64,000 bases of DNA from Desulfomicrobium sp. (GCA_040768745.1 JAXGMI010000001.1:608001-672000), one strand, 5' to 3'. Shown: positions 11,164 through 21,087, counted from the first letter of the stretch. A program made the numbers and translations. The notes: generated by a model not told the origin, from the sequence alone.

Positions 11164-11243
11164 ACTGCACCTCTCACTGCAAAAACGATCTGGGGCAGCA
11201 GAGGCGAGGAAAAGAGGATCGGCCGGACAATCCAGCCCCTGTC

Positions 11244-11318
11244 TTGCAATTCCCTTCGCCGGCACGATCCAGATCAGGTTCAACGGGTATCATCTCAGGC
11301 TCCTCGCCACCCCTGCAA
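11244..11318 (-). promoter_or_regulatory. TPP riboswitch
   Basis: Minus strand reads TTGCAGGGGTGGCGAGGAGCCTGAGATGATACCCGTTGAACCTGATCTGGATCGTGCCGGCGAAGGGAATTGCAA, with the CUGAGA and GAACCUGAUC...GCGAAGGGAA THI-box motifs, upstream of thiM. Confidence 0.95.
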
Positions 11319-11395
11319 AACAGATTTTGTCTAGACCTTAGCAGGCCTGACTGTCAATTGATTCTCAAATTACGTCACCCATTTTTTCATCAATA

Positions 11396-11725
11396 TCAAT
11401 TCGTATCGATGGTGACTATCTTCCACCATTGTGCTTTTTTCCTTGCGACAAACGTCGCCCGAAAGGTCTCGCCCTTCCCGGTGTAGTTCCTCACCGTGGC
11501 CAGCGCCCGGTACGTTCTTCCTTCATCGTTTTGGACAACGATATGCGCCTGGAGTGGATTTTTCAAAGTCCCTCCGCTCACTCTACCGCTGACCGTGACT
11601 TGCCCGCCCTTTTGCCAAGCGTGAACATTGGAAAAAACAAATCCATTTGCTTGCCAAATTCCTTCCGCAAAGCTGCTGATTGCCCAAATCAGGAGGGCCA
11701 GCATGGCCGTGCCCGTCATTTTCAT
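11396..11725 (-). CDS. Hypothetical exported protein
   Basis: MKMTGTAMLALLIWAISSFA signal peptide and beta-rich body; lies just outside the left att repeat. Confidence 0.65.
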   Translation of the reverse strand: MKMTGTAMLALLIWAISSFAEGIWQANGFVFSNVHAWQKGGQVTVSGRVSGGTLKNPLQAHIVVQNDEGRTYRALATVRNYTGKGETFRATFVARKKAQWWKIVTIDTN

Positions 11726-12047
11726 CGTGGCGCATCCTTTCAGGTTGAGGCTCCCTCTGAATTCGTATGAAAATAATTTGTTCCTGGATTCATGGCAAAC
11801 GGTCCCGTCTGCCGGGCGACATTTTCTGGCCCTCTGTTTTTCGAACGTACGCCCGCATGGAGGGTTACCCCTCTCTTTGGCTTTTCTCAAGGGCAAAGGG
11901 CTCTTTCTACTTCTCACCTGCGCTCGTTGTCTTTGGTTCCAGGGAATCCTTGCTCTCCCTGAATCCGATGTGCCACTTGACGAGCATTTTTTTATTCTTC
12001 CCTATTTGCCTGATTCAAAAAGGTTAAATCAGAACAGCGTACCAGGT

Positions 12048-12091
12048 AAAAAAAGGTTCCGGCAAGTTGCACACTTGCCGGAACCTTTTTT
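12048..12091. terminator. Bidirectional intrinsic terminator (original host terminator of tRNA-Arg)
   Basis: AAAAAAAGGTTCCGGCAAG-TTGCACA-CTTGCCGGAACCTTTTTT long inverted repeat with A/T tails. Confidence 0.8.
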
Positions 12092-12142
12092 GAATCTGGT
12101 GCCCCCACCATGACTCGAACATGGGCAAACCAGGATTAGGAA
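12079..12142. repeat. Prophage att repeat, left copy (displaced 3' half of tRNA-Arg)
   Basis: 64 bp identical to 20992-21055 (CGGAACC...CAGGATTAGGAA); identity ends in the anticodon loop. Confidence 0.95.
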
Positions 12143-12235
12143 CCGTCAAGGAATACGGGGAACAGCCAGACACCTTCCGGATTATGTCGGATTTAAGTAC
12201 TTTTTCATGCGAAAAAGTGGCGTTCTGGGTGGCGT

Positions 12236-12823
12236 CTATAGGTCCAATTTTTCGTCATTCTTCCAAAAATTCACTGTTAGGAGGGTGGTTTTTCCGTCCT
12301 TGATTATTTTTGCGATGTAGGTTCCTCGTTTGAGGGATATTTTTTCCGTTTTATTTCCGTTTATTATGTACGGCCCATATTTATTGTTTGTATTTTGATC
12401 AACGAACCAGACTGTTGTTTTTTCTTTCGTAGATACTATTAGTACGTCTTCTTCAGGATGCGTTTTTTTTGATTCAAACGATTTTATAGTTGTATTTAAA
12501 TTTATTGTATTTTCTTCATCTTCTTTTGTTAATCTGTAAATTTCGTTTGATATTGGTCTGCTATTGGTGATTACAATTTGGCCAACATAGTAAACAACGA
12601 ACATAACAGCCATTGCCACAGGGACGCCTAAAAGAAACCCGTTCTTATAAGATGGACGCCATCGTGTGATTCTCCAAGCATTTAAGTTTTCATTCTCTTT
12701 TCTTTTTTTCTCATTAATTACTTCAAGTGCGGAATATAGAGTGCCGCACTTGCAGCAGTATTCAGGAAAAAATTTCAGTTCTTCTTTACTCGGCCTGTGA
12801 TGGCATTGTGGGCAAGTTTTCAT
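12236..12823 (-). CDS. Prophage cargo: zinc-ribbon plus single-TM protein
   Basis: CPQC...CCKC N-terminus, TM FLLGVPVAMAVMFVVYYVG and a soluble C-terminal domain; very AT-rich; overlaps the repressor 3' end. Confidence 0.7.
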   Translation of the reverse strand: MKTCPQCHHRPSKEELKFFPEYCCKCGTLYSALEVINEKKRKENENLNAWRITRWRPSYKNGFLLGVPVAMAVMFVVYYVGQIVITNSRPISNEIYRLTKEDEENTINLNTTIKSFESKKTHPEEDVLIVSTKEKTTVWFVDQNTNNKYGPYIINGNKTEKISLKRGTYIAKIIKDGKTTLLTVNFWKNDEKLDL

Positions 12824-13184
12824 TTTTGTCATTCTCACGAAGCAATTTTTCTAATAATTCTTCCCGTTGAGCTTGTTGAAGAAGACTGTTTTGAGCTTTT
12901 TCAGATAGCCTATCTGCGATCTTTCCAATTTTCAACGCCGTTGGGCTTTGTATGACAGTGTTTGTTTCTCCGGTCAGTAGCCACATAGGATCAACCCCGA
13001 ATTTTTCAATTAACGCAATGATTGTTTTAGATCTCGGTTCAGCCTGTTTGTTTTCCAACCTGCTCCACGCTGGTTGAGACATTCCTAAGGCTTCAGCAAA
13101 ACGATTTGTAGATAACCCGCTTTTTTCACGAGTTATTTTCAGTCTTTCCGCTATTGAATATTTAATGTTTTTTGGTATTGACAT
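12786..13184 (-). CDS. XRE-family HTH repressor of the prophage
   Basis: IAERLKITREKSGLSTNRFAEALGMSQPAWSRLE...GVDPMWLLTGE; transcribed divergently from the structural genes. Confidence 0.9.
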   Translation of the reverse strand: MSIPKNIKYSIAERLKITREKSGLSTNRFAEALGMSQPAWSRLENKQAEPRSKTIIALIEKFGVDPMWLLTGETNTVIQSPTALKIGKIADRLSEKAQNSLLQQAQREELLEKLLRENDKNENLPTMPSQAE

Positions 13185-13407
13185 GATGCTCAAAAATCAA
13201 TTATTAAATAATCAAAGTTTTTGAATTAATATTCGTAGTTGCTGATAGGCTCTTTTTTTTGGCCAGAATAATGCTTAAAAGTATCAAATTGAGTACTAAA
13301 GTTAGTGAATATTAAGATTTTTCAAGCGGCTGTTGTCGGACTTTTTGACCTTTCTGCCGACTTTTCGAGATTCAAGACCACCTTACCAAAAAATCGGAGA
13401 TCAAGCC

Positions 13408-13707
13408 ATGAACCAGCATCAATTTCCCCCAACTGAGAAGGCTTTTTTTTGTACTGTATGCGGGACCAAGGAAGTTGAGTTGTATTCAGATCTTATTCAA
13501 GGGATTTTAGACAATTCTTATCCAGTAACAGGTGAAGTGTATGTCGAGCAGCCACAAATGTGTATAGGAACGGAAATTTTTTACATTTATATAAAGTTTT
13601 TTCCCAACAAAGAAGAATATCAAAATATTGAGCTTTGCAAAACACATATTAAAGTCTGTTTACAATTTAATCATATCAATCTTCTCAAACAACAACTTGG
13701 CATGTAG
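13408..13707 (+). CDS. Prophage hypothetical protein (CxxC, CxxH)
   Basis: GGAGA RBS; FCTVCG and LCKTH motifs; first gene of the rightward unit. Confidence 0.6.
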   Translation: MNQHQFPPTEKAFFCTVCGTKEVELYSDLIQGILDNSYPVTGEVYVEQPQMCIGTEIFYIYIKFFPNKEEYQNIELCKTHIKVCLQFNHINLLKQQLGM

Positions 13708-13719
13708 GAGGAACAACCC

Positions 13720-14004
13720 ATGCAAAACGGTCTCATTTTCTGCGGTGCATTACTCGGCAAAAGTCACATTAAGTGGGGTGCTAAAGCTGACCGAAAGGAA
13801 GGAGAAATGCTTAACCTGTACATATGCCCGAAGGCTTCCAATGGTTCTTTGGATGCCAAGCCCGAGGAGGTGATGGTTTCTACGGATCTTATATCGGATG
13901 TTGAGCGCAGGCTTCTTACAATGAAGCAGTTCGACATTGTGTTTCTTCAGGTCGAAAAGCAGCGTGAACGACTCGTTTTCAAACAGTTTCTTGATCTGAA
14001 ATAG
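13720..14004 (+). CDS. Putative ssDNA-binding protein (pV-like)
   Basis: 94 aa, AGGAGG RBS, alternating beta-strand pattern, immediately before the small coat genes; function inferred from synteny. Confidence 0.55.
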   Translation: MQNGLIFCGALLGKSHIKWGAKADRKEGEMLNLYICPKASNGSLDAKPEEVMVSTDLISDVERRLLTMKQFDIVFLQVEKQRERLVFKQFLDLK

Positions 14005-14012
14005 GTGCTATC

Positions 14013-14147
14013 ATGTTGGATTGGTTAATTGAAATCTGGCCCTGGTTTGATCCTGACGCTTTTAACATCGGCGCGGCTGTTGTCATCGCGTGGTGGTTTA
14101 CCGGCGTTACCATTGGTTGGCTTTTCGATCTGATCCGTAAGTCATAG
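14013..14147 (+). CDS. Small hydrophobic protein, minor coat (pVII-like), 44 aa
   Basis: MLDWLIEIWPWFDPDAFNIGAAVVIAWWFTGVTIGWLFDLIRKS; AGGTG RBS; below the ORF-track cutoff. Confidence 0.7.
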   Translation: MLDWLIEIWPWFDPDAFNIGAAVVIAWWFTGVTIGWLFDLIRKS

Positions 14148-14157
14148 GTGAAAAAGC

Positions 14158-14235
14158 ATGTCGCGGCGCTTTTATCATAATATGTTGGCCATTCTGGCCG
14201 TGGTCCTGATCCTTTCAACCCTTTTCCTCTTATGA
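14158..14235 (+). CDS. Small hydrophobic protein, minor coat (pIX-like), 25 aa
   Basis: MSRRFYHNMLAILAVVLILSTLFLL; AGGTG RBS; fills the gap before the major coat gene. Confidence 0.5.
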   Translation: MSRRFYHNMLAILAVVLILSTLFLL

Positions 14236-14244
14236 GGTGTTACC

Positions 14245-14448
14245 ATGTTCAAACGTATTGCTTCCATCGTCGCTGGCGTTTCTGGTGCTGTCCTGGCAGC
14301 TGTCCCCGCTATGGCCGTATCTATTATCGACGTTACAGACATGACCCCTGATGTTTCCATGGTCGGAACTCTCGGCGGTGCTATCTGTACCGGTTTGCTG
14401 GGCATCTGGGGCGTTCGCAAGGTTATTAAGTTGGTTAACCGAAGCTAG
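14245..14448 (+). CDS. Major coat protein (pVIII/CoaB-like)
   Basis: Signal peptide ending AMA, acidic N-terminus, one TM (GTLGGAICTGLLGIWGV) and basic C-tail RKVIKLVNRS; GAGGTG RBS. Confidence 0.88.
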   Translation: MFKRIASIVAGVSGAVLAAVPAMAVSIIDVTDMTPDVSMVGTLGGAICTGLLGIWGVRKVIKLVNRS

Positions 14449-14454
14449 TTAGTT

Positions 14455-14490
14455 GGGGCGGGATTGTTGCAGAACTCCCGCCCCTTTTTC
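14455..14490 (+). terminator. Intrinsic terminator after the major coat gene
   Basis: GGGGCGGGA...TCCCGCCCC followed by TTTTT; positionally equivalent to the Ff central terminator after gene VIII. Confidence 0.8.
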
Positions 14491-14510
14491 TTCATAATGC
14501 TGGGGGAGCC

Positions 14511-14627
14511 ATGAATTCAACTACAGAACTTGTCATATACGCCGTGTCGAATCATGGCGCTATTTTTTCAATGTTCCTTGGCGCTCTTTGTTCGTCTTTT
14601 ATGTGTTGGGGGTTTGGCCGTGGATAA
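14511..14627 (+). CDS. Small hydrophobic protein, 38 aa
   Basis: MNSTTELVIYAVSNHGAIFSMFLGALCSSFMCWGFGRG; GGGGAG RBS; stop overlaps the GTG of the next gene. Confidence 0.6.
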   Translation: MNSTTELVIYAVSNHGAIFSMFLGALCSSFMCWGFGRG

Positions 14628-16107
14628 GAGATTGATCAAAATTACATGCCTCTTTCTTATTGCTATAATATCAATCCAGTTCGTTCAGGTAGAAATACAA
14701 AAAGAAAAAGAACGCGAAAACTGGCGACAGTTCCGCCTTTATATGGATGCTCGGAAGTCAGAAGCAAATCCGCTTCTGACTGGTGTTCTGGCTTCTGCTG
14801 CTGCTCCGCATGTGCTGGCTGCTTTGGTCCTCGGCACAAGTGCCTTATGGTGCTGGACTCATGGCGGAAAAGAGGCATGGGTGCAGATGAATCAGGCTAT
14901 TTGTGATGGGGTGGCGGTTACAAAAGAGGCTGTGCAAAAGTGGATTGCTGAGCATAACGGAATAAACACGTCTTCGGGTCCTAGCGATGCTGTCGTTCCG
15001 GTCGGCGGATATGCCCCCCATTACGACGGGTATTCTTACAAGGTTACTAGTTATTCCGGTATTGTAAGTGTGTATTTCACAAACTTTAACGGGAAATCTT
15101 CATTCATACAATCCGGCGCGCTTTATATTAAAATATCCGAAACCGGTATTGATTGGCCGTCTCATAGGTACGTAATCAATCAAAATGATCGCATTCCTAC
15201 ACCTGCGGAATTTAACCCTGCCGACTATCCGCACCTTTTTCAAGGTCCGGCCTTGCTCTCAAATTGCCACGCTGTGGCCGAAAGTAAGCGGGCCCTTTTG
15301 ACTATTCCGGCCCCCACTCCCACGGCTACGGCTCCGGCTGGGGCCTCTTCTGCTCCTCCTGCTGCGATTGTTCCGCCTGTGCATCTGGTGGCCGTGGCCG
15401 CTGATGGGTCAGCTATTGATAACCGTGGCCGCAAATGGCCTCCGCTTCCGGGCGTTATCCCGGATCTGCTGAATCCTCCTTCTTTGGCTCCGGGTGGCTC
15501 TGTGGATGTGCCCCTTGCCCCTGCAGCCCCCGGCGTTGCTCCCGAAACCGTGACCGTGCCTGCTCATATCGGTCAGCCTTTGCTGGATTTGCTGCCAGCA
15601 GGGGCAACAATCAAGCATATCGTACCCGGACAGGGCGTTGTGTATGTGCCTGCTGGCGCTGCCGCCTCGCATCCCGGCATATATCAGCCGCTGCCCCCTG
15701 CCGTAGCAAATAGCCTGCCCGCTACCCTTCCGACTACCGCCGCCCCTGCGGATACCCTGCCGGGTAATCCTACCGCTGAGGCTGAAGCAGATCCCGGAAA
15801 CCCTGCCGACATAGCATTGCCGGACATTCCCGCTTTTGATCCAGAGATGGATTGGGGACAAGAAGAGCCTTGGCCGTGGGATGAGTGGATTTCAATGTTG
15901 CCTTTTATAGACGTATTGGAAGACTCAAGCATTAACCTTTCTGGTGCATCTTCTGTTATTTCCTTTAATTACTCTATGTTAGGGGCTAATAAGACGATTT
16001 CCTATAATTTTTCACAATGGGAAGGTTTGATCAATTCAATGGGTTTTATCATTTATGCATGTTCATGCTGGTATGCTCTACAACTTGCTTTACTAAAGAG
16101 AGATTAA
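14620..16107 (+). CDS. Adsorption/minor coat protein (pIII/CoaA-like)
   Basis: N-terminal hydrophobic segments, long Pro/Ala-rich linker, C-terminal TM anchor (MGFIIYACSCWYALQLALLKRD); lies between pVIII-like and pVI-like genes. Confidence 0.78.
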   Translation: MDKRLIKITCLFLIAIISIQFVQVEIQKEKERENWRQFRLYMDARKSEANPLLTGVLASAAAPHVLAALVLGTSALWCWTHGGKEAWVQMNQAICDGVAVTKEAVQKWIAEHNGINTSSGPSDAVVPVGGYAPHYDGYSYKVTSYSGIVSVYFTNFNGKSSFIQSGALYIKISETGIDWPSHRYVINQNDRIPTPAEFNPADYPHLFQGPALLSNCHAVAESKRALLTIPAPTPTATAPAGASSAPPAAIVPPVHLVAVAADGSAIDNRGRKWPPLPGVIPDLLNPPSLAPGGSVDVPLAPAAPGVAPETVTVPAHIGQPLLDLLPAGATIKHIVPGQGVVYVPAGAAASHPGIYQPLPPAVANSLPATLPTTAAPADTLPGNPTAEAEADPGNPADIALPDIPAFDPEMDWGQEEPWPWDEWISMLPFIDVLEDSSINLSGASSVISFNYSMLGANKTISYNFSQWEGLINSMGFIIYACSCWYALQLALLKRD

Positions 16108-16110
16108 TCC

Positions 16111-16461
16111 ATGCTTGCATTCATTTCTCGGATTATTGGTTGGCTTGCTGCAAAATTTGGTGTTCTTTTTGGTCAAGGTTTTCTAGTTGAGTTAGCCAAA
16201 TGGGCAGCATTTAAGCTGCTTATTACTGCCTTTATTACGGTCGGTATATACATTATTGCTAATAATCTTATTGTCTGGCTCGTGACAACTATTTTGGAGC
16301 AGACAAGTCAATTTGCTTCTCAAGGATCCATGGATTCTCCGGTTATTCAATTAACCGGTCTTGGTGCTTACTTTGCTAATCATTTACGTTTGACCCAGAG
16401 TTTTTCTTTGATTGTTACAGGTTTTACTATTCGTGCTATTCGTCAATTTTTGCCTTTCTGA
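16111..16461 (+). CDS. Minor coat membrane protein (pVI-like)
   Basis: 116-aa hydrophobic protein ending IRAIRQFLPF, directly after the pIII-like gene. Confidence 0.78.
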   Translation: MLAFISRIIGWLAAKFGVLFGQGFLVELAKWAAFKLLITAFITVGIYIIANNLIVWLVTTILEQTSQFASQGSMDSPVIQLTGLGAYFANHLRLTQSFSLIVTGFTIRAIRQFLPF

Positions 16462-16528
16462 AACAAGCTGGACGCCCAAGGTAAAGCCCAGCGTAGTATC
16501 AATGTACAAAACGAATCGAGGATCTAAT

Positions 16529-16894
16529 ATGAACCTGCACAAGCTCAAAAAAATGATAAAAAAGCCTGAACCATGGGTAAACATCCATATGGAAACATTT
16601 TATCAACTGTGCATGTTTTATTGTGAAAATGCAGAACAAAAAGATGCATTTGCATTTATAACTAAAATGAACAAAATATCACAGCAAGATATATCAGATA
16701 CAAGGCCTCACACCGTTTTAGAGCATTTGAAAATATACCACGAATTGGTTAAATTCTACAAAGAGAATGCCGATCCTCTTGAGGTTCAAAAACTCCAATG
16801 CCTGATTTTAAGCCATATCCGACGGCTGGAAAAAAGCAAAAACGACCTGGCCAAGTCTCTCGAACGGCATGAACAGCACTTTTTTGTTTTTTGA
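16529..16894 (+). CDS. Prophage cargo: orphan alpha-helical protein, 121 aa
   Basis: GAGG RBS; A-rich rather than T-rich; sits between pVI-like and zot. Confidence 0.65.
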   Translation: MNLHKLKKMIKKPEPWVNIHMETFYQLCMFYCENAEQKDAFAFITKMNKISQQDISDTRPHTVLEHLKIYHELVKFYKENADPLEVQKLQCLILSHIRRLEKSKNDLAKSLERHEQHFFVF

Positions 16895-17058
16895 TTTTGA
16901 GTTTTCACCCCATCCCCCTTCACCTCCCTTGAGGGGCGGGGGGGTGAAAACTTTCTCTTTGACACGGTTTATCACGAGCTTTGATTTGCAAAGCCAGTGC
17001 CACATGGGTTTATGTGGCTCGGGTTTGCAATCAAAGCGAACCTCTATGCGGGGAGCCT

Positions 17059-18360
17059 ATGTCTATTGAAATTTTGACTGGAGTTCCAGGATCTGGAAAA
17101 ACTTACTTCGCTGTTTCTCGTATCCAAAAGCTACTTACCCTTGAAACCCGGTTTTTGATTTTGCACAACATCGAAGGTCTTTATCCTTCAGATAATCGTT
17201 GTATCTCTAAGGATTGGCTTACCGATGATTTTAACGCCTCTGTCATGGCTGATTATCTTCGGAAGCTTCGGACTGAGTACGAACTAACCTCGGAAGATCC
17301 CATTTACCTATTTATTGACGAAGCACAGCGTTTCTTTCCTCCTGAACTTAAAGATCCCCAAGTTCTATACTTCTTTGATTATCACCGTCACTTTGGCGTG
17401 AATATTGTGCTTATCACGCAACATGAAAAGAAACTTACTTACAAGATCACGACTCTTGCAGAAGTCGAGATTCGCGCCGTTAATTCACGTGTCAATCCGT
17501 TCTCCTCGTTCGTCTATAAACTGTCATCTGGCGGTGAACAATACGGTACAGAAAGACTCACTAAAGACTCATCCGTTTTCCGGCTTTATAAATCGTTTCA
17601 TGCCGGCACTGGCAAAAGCACTAAATCTCGATTCCGCTATCTCGCCCTTGCATTGGTAGTTGCTGCTCCTATTGCTTGGTTGATCTTTTTTCGTGTATTT
17701 GCAAAATCCTTCGGCCTCATCGACAATGAATCTTCTTCACAAAGTGTTTCTGCTCCTCTTCCACCAGTAGAACGCCTCCCACTTTCCTCTACCAGGTCTA
17801 ACGCTGAAGCTTTCCGACCTTCTGTAGTCCAGCCTCAGGAGGATATACGCAAAACGGATTACTTCGGTCCTGAAATCAAGGAATATTCCATCAGTCGTGA
17901 CGCACTTCTCATACCCGTAAATGACATTGGCGATGCCTGGATTTCAGTTGCCCAATTTGTCGAAAAATATCCTCCTCATCTTTATGGTTATGGTTACTTC
18001 CACGCACCAAATAAGCGTTTTGTTCTTCTCTCCGCGACCAATCAGGATCTGATTTTCCCGGTCAAGAATCCAGTTTTTGTACGCTCCTTCATACGTTCTG
18101 AACCTCCTATACCTTCTGATCCGCAACGCCCACCATACCCGATTTATTTTTTGAACATGACTAATCTGCCTGACAAGTACGGCTACACGCGTACCGACTA
18201 CGAACGTGTTTTCCTACAGCAGCGTGGTTTTCAGCATGAGATTGATATGAAACCTGCCGAAACGCCGCCAAGCCCCGGCGAGGAAACGCAGCCGGGCGCG
18301 CAGGCGGGGGCGGCCCCGTCGCCCGTGAATGGGACCTCCCCCAGTTCTAACAGGGGGTGA
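17059..18360 (+). CDS. zot: Zot-like / pI morphogenesis ATPase
   Basis: ILTGVPGSGKTY (Walker A), LFIDEAQRFFP (Walker B), YHRHFGVNIVLITQ, then a TM segment and a periplasmic tail. Confidence 0.93.
   Translation: MSIEILTGVPGSGKTYFAVSRIQKLLTLETRFLILHNIEGLYPSDNRCISKDWLTDDFNASVMADYLRKLRTEYELTSEDPIYLFIDEAQRFFPPELKDPQVLYFFDYHRHFGVNIVLITQHEKKLTYKITTLAEVEIRAVNSRVNPFSSFVYKLSSGGEQYGTERLTKDSSVFRLYKSFHAGTGKSTKSRFRYLALALVVAAPIAWLIFFRVFAKSFGLIDNESSSQSVSAPLPPVERLPLSSTRSNAEAFRPSVVQPQEDIRKTDYFGPEIKEYSISRDALLIPVNDIGDAWISVAQFVEKYPPHLYGYGYFHAPNKRFVLLSATNQDLIFPVKNPVFVRSFIRSEPPIPSDPQRPPYPIYFLNMTNLPDKYGYTRTDYERVFLQQRGFQHEIDMKPAETPPSPGEETQPGAQAGAAPSPVNGTSPSSNRG
18338..18357 (+). other. Putative rolling-circle double-strand origin (nick hairpin)
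   Basis: CCCCC-AGTTCTAACA-GGGGG just upstream of a Rep_trans-type initiator; resembles the CTAAC/CTAAT-loop GC-stem nick sites of pT181/ICEBs1-type enzymes. Confidence 0.65.
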
Positions 18361-18429
18361 ACAAATTACATGTATTTAGTTGTATATATAACAGGGGGTG
18401 AACAAATTACATGTATTTAGTTGTATATA
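18348..18429 (+). repeat. Perfect 41-bp tandem duplication
   Basis: TAACAGGGGGTGAACAAATTACATGTATTTAGTTGTATATA at 18348-18388 and 18389-18429. Confidence 0.95.
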
Positions 18430-18465
18430 TTTAACTGCCTTTAATTAAAAAGTTTTATTTAGAAT

Positions 18466-19578
18466 ATGGGGTTTAATATGCTAGTTTGCAATTCGATAGA
18501 CACTATATGCTTTACGATTAACCTTGACCGTTCAACTCAAATGTACCTTTTGAGCTGGCAGCTTCGGCATAATCTGATTCCAAAAGGCATCTTTCCTACG
18601 GATTGTGGCATTCCCCGTTACAAGTGGGGCCTGGAACATGACGGGATCAGGATCTATTATTCTGATTCCGAGGATCTGAAGCCAAATTGCTATATACGCT
18701 TTTCCTCCGAGTATATTCAACGTGTCGGCTATCATCGCGCATACGCTCGCTGTTGCGGGCTGCTAAAGTCCTTCGGTGTTCATCGCCCCGGTCGAGGTCT
18801 CAAACTCTCTCAGATTGATTTGGCGTTTGACTTTCAGTCAGATCTATCCCTGTATTTGGATAATCCAAAGTATCATGTTACAACACGCCTTCAGAATACT
18901 GTATCACGCCATGAGGCAGACAATCTTGTGTGGCGTCTTTGGGGTGTCGGTGCCTCCCGTGGTTACAAGGTTCGTTGTTACGATAAGTTGCAAGAGTCCC
19001 ATTCTGTTGCTGGTAAAGAATACTGGCATCAGATCTGGATAAATCAGGGCTTCACCCTTGATGCCCCGGTTTGGCGCGTCGAATACGAAATGCACCGTGA
19101 TTTCCTGAAGGAATGGAAAATTGAACGTTTGAGTCATTTTCTGAATTCTCAACTGTCGATTCAGAAGCGTCTTTTTGACCTTTGGTCCATCAAGAATCGT
19201 GATAAAAGTAACGTTAATCGTTGTTCTCATGTTCCCGAATTTCAATATCTGATCGAGCATTTCTGCCGACCTTTCCAAGAACACGAAGTTGATCGCCGTC
19301 CTGAATCCTATGAAAAGGCCGCTGACCAACAGTTAGTTAAAGCTGTTAATGCCCTTGTTTCAGCGGTCGTTAACAAAGCCGCTGCATTCTTCGCTCGAAA
19401 AAAAGAGTGTAAAAACATGGAATTGTATATTCGTCAGCGTCTAGGAGCCTTTAACGGTCTTGTTCGGGATTCAGTTTTGGGGAGTCCCACAGAATTTCTT
19501 TTGGCTGTAACCGCCCTGCTTCAAAAGAAGGGGTTCTACTACACGCCGGCCCATGAGTATTTGGAGGTAGCAGCATGA
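18466..19578 (+). CDS. Rolling-circle replication initiator (Rep_trans-like)
   Basis: SIDTICF, LSQIDLAFD, VRCYDK (candidate catalytic Tyr) and VWRVEYEM motifs. Confidence 0.8.
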   Translation: MGFNMLVCNSIDTICFTINLDRSTQMYLLSWQLRHNLIPKGIFPTDCGIPRYKWGLEHDGIRIYYSDSEDLKPNCYIRFSSEYIQRVGYHRAYARCCGLLKSFGVHRPGRGLKLSQIDLAFDFQSDLSLYLDNPKYHVTTRLQNTVSRHEADNLVWRLWGVGASRGYKVRCYDKLQESHSVAGKEYWHQIWINQGFTLDAPVWRVEYEMHRDFLKEWKIERLSHFLNSQLSIQKRLFDLWSIKNRDKSNVNRCSHVPEFQYLIEHFCRPFQEHEVDRRPESYEKAADQQLVKAVNALVSAVVNKAAAFFARKKECKNMELYIRQRLGAFNGLVRDSVLGSPTEFLLAVTALLQKKGFYYTPAHEYLEVAA

Positions 19579-19796
19579 TTCACGTCATCGAACGAAACGA
19601 GCAATTCGGCATTCAGATCTACCGAACGAACAGCGTGAACGACGCTTCGACCTTCATTCTTGAGGGCGGCTTCCCAGAGGCCAACGACGCGGTTCAAGAC
19701 ATGGAGGCTGCTTATTTTGATGATCTGTCAGCAGATATTTACGTGGTGATCGATAGCCGAGGGGACCTGTATGACTACGAAGTCATGTCTTTTTGA
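19575..19796 (+). CDS. Prophage hypothetical acidic protein, 73 aa
   Basis: ATGA overlap with rep; GGAGG RBS. Confidence 0.6.
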   Translation: MIHVIERNEQFGIQIYRTNSVNDASTFILEGGFPEANDAVQDMEAAYFDDLSADIYVVIDSRGDLYDYEVMSF

Positions 19797-20145
19797 TCTT
19801 GGGGCCCGCCTCGATCGAAAACAGGTCCAGGCACTGCTTGGCATTTCAGAGGATACCCTGTTAGCTGATCCTGTACGATTCGGCGGTGTCTGGCTAGGTC
19901 CTCGAAAGCTGGTGTTCTTTGAAAAACTCATATCCGAAGCGATTAGGGAACTCTATGCCAATCAAAAAGATCAGAAAAAACGGGTTATCGTGGATAGGGC
20001 GGGTGATGCTCCCGAATGGGAAGCGAGTAGAGAAGGCGTTTCCGACGAAGCCGGAGGCGATGAAATGGGAGTCCATCCAGCGGTCCGCGCTTTCGCACAT
20101 GAAAACGGGCCTCACCTGTGGCAAGTGGTTGAACAGAAGAATTGA
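19771..20145 (+). CDS. Putative excisionase-like HTH protein overlapping the integrase
   Basis: LGARLDRKQVQALLGISEDTL...FGGVWLGPRKLVFFE winged-HTH-like pattern, adjacent to int. Confidence 0.55.
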   Translation: MTTKSCLFDLGARLDRKQVQALLGISEDTLLADPVRFGGVWLGPRKLVFFEKLISEAIRELYANQKDQKKRVIVDRAGDAPEWEASREGVSDEAGGDEMGVHPAVRAFAHENGPHLWQVVEQKN

Positions 20146-20986
20146 TGAATACAAAGCCCGTGGCCTTGTTTCGATCGGAGACAAGACGCGGACGTTCTCC
20201 CGGTTCTTCAAGGACGTTGACGAGCATTTGCCCGTTGCGATGGTCACGCCGGAACATGCTTTACGGCATCTTTCAAGGGTGGCCAAAGAGGTATCCGGAG
20301 ACAGGGCGAACAGATCCAAGCGTCACCTGACAGAAGCGTGGTCCTGGGGAGTTCGTTTCCTCGGCCTCCCGTCGTTCAATCCATTCGCTCAAGTCCCTGA
20401 TTATCCCACTCAGTCCAAAGATCTTGTAGTTCCTAAGGAAGACTATTTTTGGGCTGTTGTTGAACAGGCACAAGATCAGCAGGAGAAAACGGCCGTTCTC
20501 TTCTTGTATTATACGGCGTGTCGTCGTGGGGAGCTGTTGCGGCTTCAATGGTCAGAAATAGACTTTGATCGTGAAGCTGTCCGGCTTTCGTGCAGAAAGG
20601 GTCGTAATGCCTCATGGTTTTCAGCGTGGGTGCGAATCCCAGACGAATTGATTCAGGAACTCAAGCGCTGGAAGCTGCAAGCAGGGCCCGGGCCTCAGGT
20701 TTTTCGCCTGCCTCGTGCATTCCACTTTATTCAAGTCCTCTGCCAACGTGCGGGTGTCCCGCAGTTTGGCTTTCATTCCATCCGGCATCTTGTGGCTGTG
20801 CAGCTGTACCGGGCAGGGCACACCGTAGCCGAGATTCAAACACTTCTTCGCCATCGGTCCCCTCAGACCACTGAAATCTATCTTCGGTCCCTCGGGGTGT
20901 TCCAAACCTCTGAAGCGGTCGTTGAGTCGCTCGGGGTGGCGCGTCGGGTGGCGCGGGAAAAAAGAAAGGTTCCGTCGAGCTGCTAA
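19955..20986 (+). CDS. int: Tyrosine recombinase/integrase
   Basis: TACRRGEL (R), FHSIRH (HxxR), LLRH and TTEIY (Y) catalytic motifs; short basic N-terminal arm-binding-like region; abuts att. Confidence 0.93.
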   Translation: MPIKKIRKNGLSWIGRVMLPNGKRVEKAFPTKPEAMKWESIQRSALSHMKTGLTCGKWLNRRIDEYKARGLVSIGDKTRTFSRFFKDVDEHLPVAMVTPEHALRHLSRVAKEVSGDRANRSKRHLTEAWSWGVRFLGLPSFNPFAQVPDYPTQSKDLVVPKEDYFWAVVEQAQDQQEKTAVLFLYYTACRRGELLRLQWSEIDFDREAVRLSCRKGRNASWFSAWVRIPDELIQELKRWKLQAGPGPQVFRLPRAFHFIQVLCQRAGVPQFGFHSIRHLVAVQLYRAGHTVAEIQTLLRHRSPQTTEIYLRSLGVFQTSEAVVESLGVARRVAREKRKVPSSC

Positions 20987-20991
20987 CTACT

Positions 20992-21055
20992 CGGAACCTT
21001 TTTTGAATCTGGTGCCCCCACCATGACTCGAACATGGGCAAACCAGGATTAGGAA
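20992..21055. repeat. Prophage att repeat, right copy (overlaps the intact tRNA 3' half)
   Basis: 64 bp identical to 12079-12142. Confidence 0.95.
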
Positions 21056-21087
21056 TCCTGTGCTCTATCCACCTGAGCTATGGGGGC
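21010..21087 (-). tRNA. tRNA-Arg (anticodon CCT)
   Basis: GCCCCCA-TAGCTCAGGTGGATAGAGC-A-CAGGA-TTCCTAA-TCCTG-GTTTGC-CCATG-TTCGAGT-CATGG-TGGGGGC-ACCA folds as a cloverleaf with encoded CCA. Confidence 0.96.

Follow-up and report, generated by a model that had tools for sequence, protein, structure and literature searches.

Evidence for an inovirus prophage at the tRNA-Arg(CCT) gene of a sulfate-reducing Desulfomicrobium sp.

The 64,000-nucleotide stretch JAXGMI010000001.1:608001-672000 of a Desulfomicrobium sp. genome (GCA_040768745.1; 3.09 Mb), referred to here at its full length as the window, carries an insert bounded by exact repeats at a tRNA-Arg(CCT) gene. The question raised by this locus is whether the insert is the genome of a filamentous phage and, if so, whether it is still able to make particles. 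A first reading of the sequence (the original prediction) had proposed a potentially active, inovirus-like prophage that encodes a tyrosine integrase of its own and has a layout similar to that of the Pseudomonas Pf prophages. The element is almost certainly an inovirus prophage, with that integrase and that layout, and we lean towards an intact, repressed prophage that could still make particles.

The excisable unit was 8,913 bp, between exact 64-bp direct repeats (Table 1). The two copies were identical over 64 bp, with no extension possible in either direction, and were the only two sites of the 64-mer in the whole genome. When the flanks were joined computationally without the element, tRNA-Arg(CCT), the sole CCT tRNA of the 63 tRNAs called in the genome, was restored. 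The perfect att repeats of the original prediction were confirmed. In Roux 2019 a canonical att site is a direct repeat, 10 bp or longer, that lies within a tRNA or adjacent to the integrase (PMC6813254), and the present repeat agrees with this description. The sequence shows that the phage tyrosine integrase recombined its 64-bp core with the tRNA gene's 3' half and rebuilt the tRNA. The GC content of the element was 0.455, in comparison with 0.597 in the remaining window. It contained 16 open reading frames (ORFs), all open and in the order previously proposed, from repressor to integrase, with 91% of the element coding and with no stop, frameshift or insertion sequence (IS) in the core genes. 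To the features named in the original prediction are added the 25-aa membrane ORF, the gene behind the repressor, three ORFs without a known family (13408-13707, 16529-16894, 19575-19796), the double hairpin, the predicted rolling-circle origin with its tandem duplication, and the lack of pIV. The host gene dsrA was detected at 603 bits (cut-off 393), in agreement with the sulfate-reducing host that had been presumed.

Table 1. Features of the element and of its insertion site (window positions; TM, transmembrane; HTH, helix-turn-helix).
Feature	Position	Strand	Basis or remark
Perfect 19-bp inverted repeat, terminator-like, behind duplicated tRNA half, overlapping att copy	12049..12091	-	fold z -9.1
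att copy, host-terminator end	12079..12142		identical to 20992-21055; duplicate of tRNA-Arg(CCT) 3' half plus 18 bp downstream
Gene behind repressor	12236..12838	-	two CxxC (zinc-ribbon), TM 67-85, C-terminal domain; 36% to same-place gene in L026
HTH_3/XRE repressor (RstR/Pf4r role), divergent from phage operon	12786..13193	-	Pfam HTH_3 7e-10; phrog_2328 repressor 1e-16
99-aa conserved ORF, no known family, first gene of rightward operon	13408..13707	+	60-61% to L012, L038
Single-stranded DNA-binding protein (SSB; pV role), OB fold, 94 aa	13720..14004	+	model pLDDT 87.6
44-aa membrane protein, pVII-like by position	14013..14147	+	phrog_1147 5e-6; hydropathy; 61% to L026
25-aa hydrophobic membrane ORF, putatively pIX-like by position	14158..14235	+	ORF scan, hydropathy
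Major coat precursor (pVIII role), 67 aa	14245..14448	+	phrog_2186 virion structural protein 7.8e-5
Terminator-like hairpin immediately 3' of coat gene	14455..14490	+	fold z -4.0; not in consensus scan list
Probable minor virion protein, membrane ORF of 38 aa	14511..14627	+	72% to L026; hydropathy
pIII-like adhesion protein, 495 aa	14620..16107	+	variable N-terminal/middle part, Pro-rich linker, conserved C-terminal membrane anchor
pVI-like minor coat protein	16111..16461	+	phrog_974 minor head protein 7e-4; three hydrophobic segments
Low-GC accessory ORF (GC 0.36), variable slot, no known family	16529..16894	+	no counterpart in related loci
Double hairpin	16899..17037	+	DNA fold z -7.25, 0/200 shuffles
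pI morphogenesis ATPase, Zot family	17059..18360	+	Pfam Zot 6e-17; phrog_197 8e-36
Predicted double-strand origin, C5/G5 stem, CT'AA in loop, predicted nick 18348/18349	18338..18357	+	motif, just upstream of rep
Perfect 41-bp tandem duplication, starting at predicted nick	18348..18429	+	repeat scan
Rep_trans-family (pT181/RstA-type) rolling-circle initiator	18475..19578	+	profile and structure search
73-aa acidic ORF, no known family	19575..19796	+	79-81% to L012, L038
Probable excisionase/regulator, overlapping integrase start in other frame	19771..20145	+	role suggested by position
Tyrosine integrase	19955..20986	+	Pfam Phage_integrase 3e-18; R190, K215, H274, R277, H300, Y309 intact
att copy giving intact tRNA its 3' half	20992..21055		identical to 12079-12142
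tRNA-Arg(CCT), intact after integration	21010..21087	-	tRNA calling

The assignment to the inoviruses is carried by the virion and assembly genes. The pI ATPase has the Walker A motif GVPGSGKT, the Walker B motif LFIDEAQ and a single TM segment at residues 195-213. PF05707 (Zot) was carried by 59 of its 59 homologues, and no FtsK, HerA or TrwB family was listed in Pfam for this ATPase at E<=0.1; the clustering with FtsK/HerA proteins that the original prediction had considered as a contrary outcome was therefore not observed. This bears on a rival explanation, by which the locus is an integrative mobilizable element rather than a virus, its initiator being a Rep_trans relaxase, CT'AA its transfer origin and the ATPase a coupling protein. 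MOBT relaxases do have the Rep_trans fold and a CT'AA site, and pI falls in the FtsK-HerA superfamily (PMC6813254), but the Zot assignment, the presence of coat, pVI and small TM genes in inovirus order, and the M13-type pIV and major head protein carried by a sister chassis (see below) make this explanation very improbable.

The 67-aa protein, whose coat-like structure had also been in question, showed the architecture of an inovirus coat precursor, with a signal peptide ending in AMA, an acidic N-terminus, a TM segment and a basic tail; the predicted mature chain is of about 42 aa, with its N-terminus near VSIID. In the alignment of 34 sequences the leader was variable, and the TM segment and basic tail were nearly invariant, as in inovirus coat precursors; D. 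orale was among the 35 coat homologues. Short single-TM structural proteins in the 30-90 aa range used by Roux 2019 were present (44, 67 and 38 aa), plus one of 25 aa, for which no PHROG match was obtained. The role names pVII, pIX, pIII and pVI are putative and follow gene position and the anatomy of the Ff phages.

The nearest catalogued relative was L026, an IMG/VR contig of 10,937 bp; locus L013 is this element too and is not counted separately. L026 shared with the element an att core of 89% identity over 63 bp, the coat protein (86%, mature part), pVI (66%), the integrase (80%) and Rep (57%); its pI is split and was 69% identical over residues 1-220 and 53% over 263-393. The pIII-like protein was 59% identical to that of L026 over the 134 C-terminal aa and 30% in its N-terminal part. 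Decay is evident in L026, where an IS4 transposase interrupts pI and rep is split; the copy in the window is intact. In a quick pI tree of 64 domains, constructed with no reference phages, the element and L026 fell in a clade of 14 rows (SH-aLRT 95). A Zot-family match was found in six of 35 genomes of the host's family, four of them strong, this genome included.

Replication of the element would follow the rolling-circle mode. The top structure matches of the SSB model were SSBs (bacterial SSB, Z 9.2, root-mean-square deviation 2.9 over 84 residues), and a Foldseek row to Orf1 of the filamentous phage B5 (E 5e-3) and an Atlas lead to PF17426 G5P were also obtained. A Rep profile built from 32 homologues matched staphylococcal RepDE (4CWC, E 8.5e-4), and the Rep model, with a mean predicted local distance difference test score (pLDDT) of 85.5, matched RepDE and RepSTK1 in Foldseek (E 5e-12 to 1e-10). 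Residues D9, D115, D119, Y169, K171, R201 and E203 are kept, and in the 32 aligned Rep rows Y169, K171, D115 and E203 were invariant and D9 nearly so. In Rep_trans proteins the catalytic Tyr/Lys and three metal-binding acidic residues have assigned roles (PMC6499999, PMC4797284). Fold, the motifs D-x-A-x-D, Y-x-K and R-x-E and a CT'AA nick loop are shared with pT181 RepD, RepSTK1 and the MOBT relaxases. The rep label of the original prediction thus stood as to an initiator; the family is now given as Rep_trans, a placement that Pfam does not annotate. The protein reads as a divergent subfamily that would work like Rep_trans. As a single sequence it gave no match in the viral contigs nor in 50,697 phage records (E<=0.01), and the profile search of the viral contigs returned L026 as the sole match.

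The origin pattern occurred once in the 3.09-Mb genome and recurred in the related loci L012, L038, L039 and L026, and partly in L027. The nick of ICEBs1 and of the Rep_trans origin has been mapped to CT'AA in the loop of a G/C hairpin (PMC9371924); the hairpin in the element was no more stable than shuffled sequences (z 0.39, -0.06), and the support for this origin is the motif, not the fold. In L027 (1840-2420) an origin-like motif was located downstream of rep, and the preceding stretch was repeated beyond an ASCH-like gene. The 41-bp duplication in the window, whose register is valid from 18348 or 18349 only, leaves the first origin hairpin whole. As its start coincides with the predicted nick and microhomology there is limited to 1 nt, it suggests, in a post hoc reading, a joining error by Rep and hence a trace of past rolling-circle replication. 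The double hairpin was retained in L012, L038, L039 and L027, with compensatory changes at 9 of 49 pairs across five sequences, and was not found in L026. It is most likely the minus-strand origin and possibly also a packaging signal, the former being favoured because the structure travels with Rep and not with the virion module.

From these features the following life cycle may be proposed. In the lysogen, the divergent HTH repressor would silence the rightward operon; upon induction, the integrase and the small overlapping protein would excise the 8,913-bp circle. The Rep_trans initiator would nick CT'AA in the 18338-18357 hairpin, a site predicted from motif and conservation, and start rolling-circle synthesis, the OB-fold SSB coating the plus strand and the double hairpin presumably priming the minus strand. 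By analogy with known phages, pI, at the inner membrane, would replace the SSB by processed coat protein; one virion end would bear the small TM proteins and the other pIII/pVI. As for exit, pIV is absent from the element, as also from L026, and the host has a single secretin gene (709-aa frame), PilQ-like by sequence and read without its neighbourhood. MDA phage, which encodes no secretin, depends on PilQ to be released (PMC2212043), and because the element likewise lacks pIV, this one PilQ-like secretin is the likely exit route. Entry would proceed via type IV pili and TolQRA; six pilus or type II secretion system-type ATPase matches were present in the host, and its TolQ-like gene reached 210 bits, under the cut-off of 221. 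Directly behind the secretin gene a transposase-like ORF was observed (L029, 2243-3403, minus strand), by its motifs of the IS66 type.

Several observations weigh against an inovirus prophage that is still functional. The 67-aa coat protein matched no solved inovirus coat by sequence; the four PDB sequences obtained at E<=10 included no coat. The pIII call follows from architecture and from a low-scoring Atlas lead, Neisseria_TspB, given for 33% of cluster members. No Pfam match was obtained for the excisionase candidate, and weak MerR/HTH_17 matches appeared in one of its four aligned homologues; this was the weakest label of the original prediction, a role suggested by position for a protein that is conserved in L012 (90%), L026 (69%) and L040 (29%). 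Arg140 of RepD, described as strictly conserved (PMC4797284), corresponds to Gln113 in Rep, in 32 of 32 aligned rows, and, unlike RepD, the element protein had no Pfam match to PF02486 (best match of the homologues: Phage_CRI, 3.5e-4, in two of 32). Among 11 more distant Rep loci, the five with a readable motif keep Arg, and six were unreadable.

Further points of this kind came from public sequencing runs. Of twenty runs listed, six, all from anaerobic digesters, contained at least half of the element words, and ten were flagged as having small shares; runs with small shares were left out, and four runs were examined as contigs. One of these, X1, and one other run are possibly the source sample, so that agreement with X1 is not independent. 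In X1 the depth was 10.4-12.4 on the element contigs, 15.7 and 19.5 on the adjoining flank contigs and 26.8 on the att contig. The 'potentially active' of the original prediction, for which read coverage had been proposed as a check, thus found no support in the depth over the element, which lay below that of the flanks. No amplification was visible, and part of the chromosomes probably lacked the element, through excision or as a sibling strain, which contig depth, a poor measure, cannot separate. No excised circle or attP junction was seen in the public runs, examined as contigs only, where the 64-bp core forms its own contig and attP/attB are inseparable from attL/attR.

By a second explanation, the same inovirus has recently been grounded, its frames still open and its excision, replication or assembly having failed. 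We regard this as a tenable but tentative alternative. The depth in X1 fits it, as do the decay of L026 and the collection of att scars at this tRNA, of which the congener G013 has four, as partial copies, upstream of its prophage, and the duplication between the origin and the start of rep could disturb Rep binding or expression. Against it, the core genes are undamaged, the duplication spares the first hairpin, the Gln common to 32 of 32 relatives is not a private lesion, and a repressed lysogen would yield the same depth picture. The intact, repressed prophage is the preferred reading.

A third explanation takes the element for an assembly chimera of co-occurring variants. Close variants, whose occurrence also speaks for the intact prophage, were present in other digester runs: in X3, from another study, 1,286 letters replaced 14627-15833 and gave a different pIII middle, the accessory slot 16529-16894 was replaced by 180 other letters, and the 41-mer was present in single copy. 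The two halves of the X3 variant had unequal depths, 14 on the left and 24 on a 4,637-letter contig which matched from 17209 on, its 862 preceding letters unmatched; possibly this contig stems from another variant or reflects an insertion within pI. Against a chimera, three X1 contigs with no differing letters tiled the element at the depth given above, interrupted only around 16463-16491, in the tandem repeat and in the att core, and, even allowing for X1 as the possible source, a chimera is hardly credible. In the RNA run X8, low-depth contigs covered rep, int and pVI, but the interval 13236-16037, coat gene included, had none; contig gaps of this kind prove nothing.

Which known systems does this prophage resemble? 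Pf prophages have the order repressor, ssb, coat, minor coat, morphogenesis, rep, int, their own tyrosine integrase and a tRNA target (PMC7047154), and Pf4, Pf6 and Pf7 are like the element in integrase, tRNA attB, repressor and gene order. In Pf4 the excisionase is near the repressor and controlled by it (PMC7047154), whereas the candidate in the element overlaps the integrase start. The element also differs from Pf in its Rep_trans initiator and in its host, a strict anaerobe of another phylum; no Pseudomonas phage was among the 29 phage records matched by pI, the best at 24-30%. To judge from its genes, the element works like Pf and is not a Pf. With Neisseria MDA (PMC2212043) it shares a Rep_trans (PF02486 in MDA) initiator, a TspB-type pIII (here a lead only), a Zot-family pI and the lack of its own secretin; MDA, in contrast, integrates by a transposase, and the element by a tyrosine integrase at a tRNA site, with a repressor. 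The closest parallel of the virion module therefore appears to be Neisseria MDA rather than Pf alone.

The original prediction had stressed novelty for Desulfobacterota, and this was overstated. Roux 2019 has 16 sequence rows of inoviruses in Deltaproteobacteria, and of 11 classification rows examined 10 are 'Amplinoviridae' and one 'Protoinoviridae'; among them is a tRNA-type D. orale prophage of 10,937 bp, 'Amplinoviridae' Sf_1 (PMC6813254), a tRNA-integrated inovirus of the same genus. From length and type we infer that this row and L026 are one prophage. 'Amplinoviridae' is a proposed family without isolates, with a genus threshold of 50% pI identity (PMC11531552). Both pI identities to L026 lie above this value, and a host with dsrA and a secretin fits the diderm Deltaproteobacteria/Campylobacterota criterion; via L026, the element most likely belongs to 'Amplinoviridae'. 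The part of that claim which stood is that no characterised filamentous phage of sulfate reducers was found in the literature, judged by titles and abstract openings and with subscription journals mostly outside.

Closer relatives of one half of the element carry another virion. In the congener G013 and the metagenome locus L038, at the same tRNA, the chassis was closer than in L026 (SSB 84%, Rep 79%, Int 88%), and the virion module differed: its pI had no more than 25% likeness, its coat was a different one, its pVI was Ace-like, and a pIV of M13 type was present; parts of this pIV-bearing module were also present in L039 and L032. In the pI tree the pIV-type pI stood on a separate long branch. 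DNA likeness to G013 ended after the SSB gene and returned at 18331, less than 20 bp from the nick, the double hairpin excepted. These loci present what reads as a clear case of virion-module exchange on one chassis. The likeness boundary near the nick could be explained by origin constraint as well as by Rep-driven crossover.

The boldest composite reading is that the element would be an inducible, PilQ-exiting first representative of 'Amplinoviridae', whose chassis (repressor-SSB and Rep-Xis-Int) swaps whole virion modules, of secretin-less TspB type or pIV-bearing CTX/Pf type. The swaps would take place at a single tRNA within a single host genus, crossover would occur at the Rep nick site itself, and a Gln-for-Arg Rep_trans subfamily would make the cut. 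As a whole, this is unlikely.

It was already known that such inoviruses are predicted from sulfate-reducer genomes, none having been grown; new is an intact member with a predicted origin. Now that its origin, nick site, att junction and coat peptide have been predicted, a first isolation from a family without isolates becomes directly testable. The module swap would mean that one lineage crosses proposed family boundaries. Filamentous phages shape biofilms in other hosts, and such shaping would matter for digester and corrosion biofilms; an integrating single-stranded DNA phage could also be a genetic tool. The element opens no new kind of system.

With respect to control and accessory genes, the repressor matched the RstR family at 4.5e-8, under the cut-off. 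A consensus scan for promoters and terminators found no more of them than in shuffled sequence (10 vs 13, 8 vs 11). No convincing match was obtained for the gene at 12236-12838 in Pfam or PHROG, and none in NCBIfam or PADLOC; it is possibly a lysogen-expressed immunity or accessory protein. Whether it is homologous to the gene that follows the repressor in G013 was considered, and this was not borne out (E 0.022). The 99-aa ORF likewise gave no convincing match in Pfam, PHROG or NCBIfam, and none of the four family-less window ORFs searched against PADLOC had a match there. In the rep-xis interval, where the window has the 73-aa ORF, L026 has an ASCH-domain gene. A simple repeat scan of the host found no CRISPR array, and no spacer-length match to the element.

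The tRNA-Arg(CCT) gene appears from the related loci to be an integration hotspot in the host genus. None of 15 congener regions offered a clean empty site that had the left neighbour of the window; the right neighbour was common and the left varied. Att pairs were also observed in L015, L016 and L018, and a 13.6-kb insert in L014. The four partial att copies of G013 lie in a row (L011, 3579-7882). The cargo at its att end (L011, 8065-12597) consists of an HTH-metallopeptidase regulator together with an ATPase-HNH pair, for which PADLOC gave matches to PDC-M01A/B and PtuA, and is likely an anti-phage system. L026 bears at its att end (97-775 and 791-811) an addiction-module antidote and Gp49-like pair, and there too, at the left end and far from rep, unlike in the window, is its origin motif. 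In a more distant element (L040, 2273-3640), with Rep at 52% and Int at 47%, the tRNA-like sequence at the end is another one, and the chassis therefore seems to use other sites.

Outside the att copy, the window carries a secreted-type gene (11396-11917, minus strand; true start probably near 11730) with 51% identity over 98 aa to the gene behind the repressor within the G013 prophage; it was probably left by an element that had occupied this tRNA earlier. Ahead of thiM/thiE-like genes, a thiamine pyrophosphate riboswitch-like element was located at 11231-11324 (minus strand; 51 bits, gathering 54).

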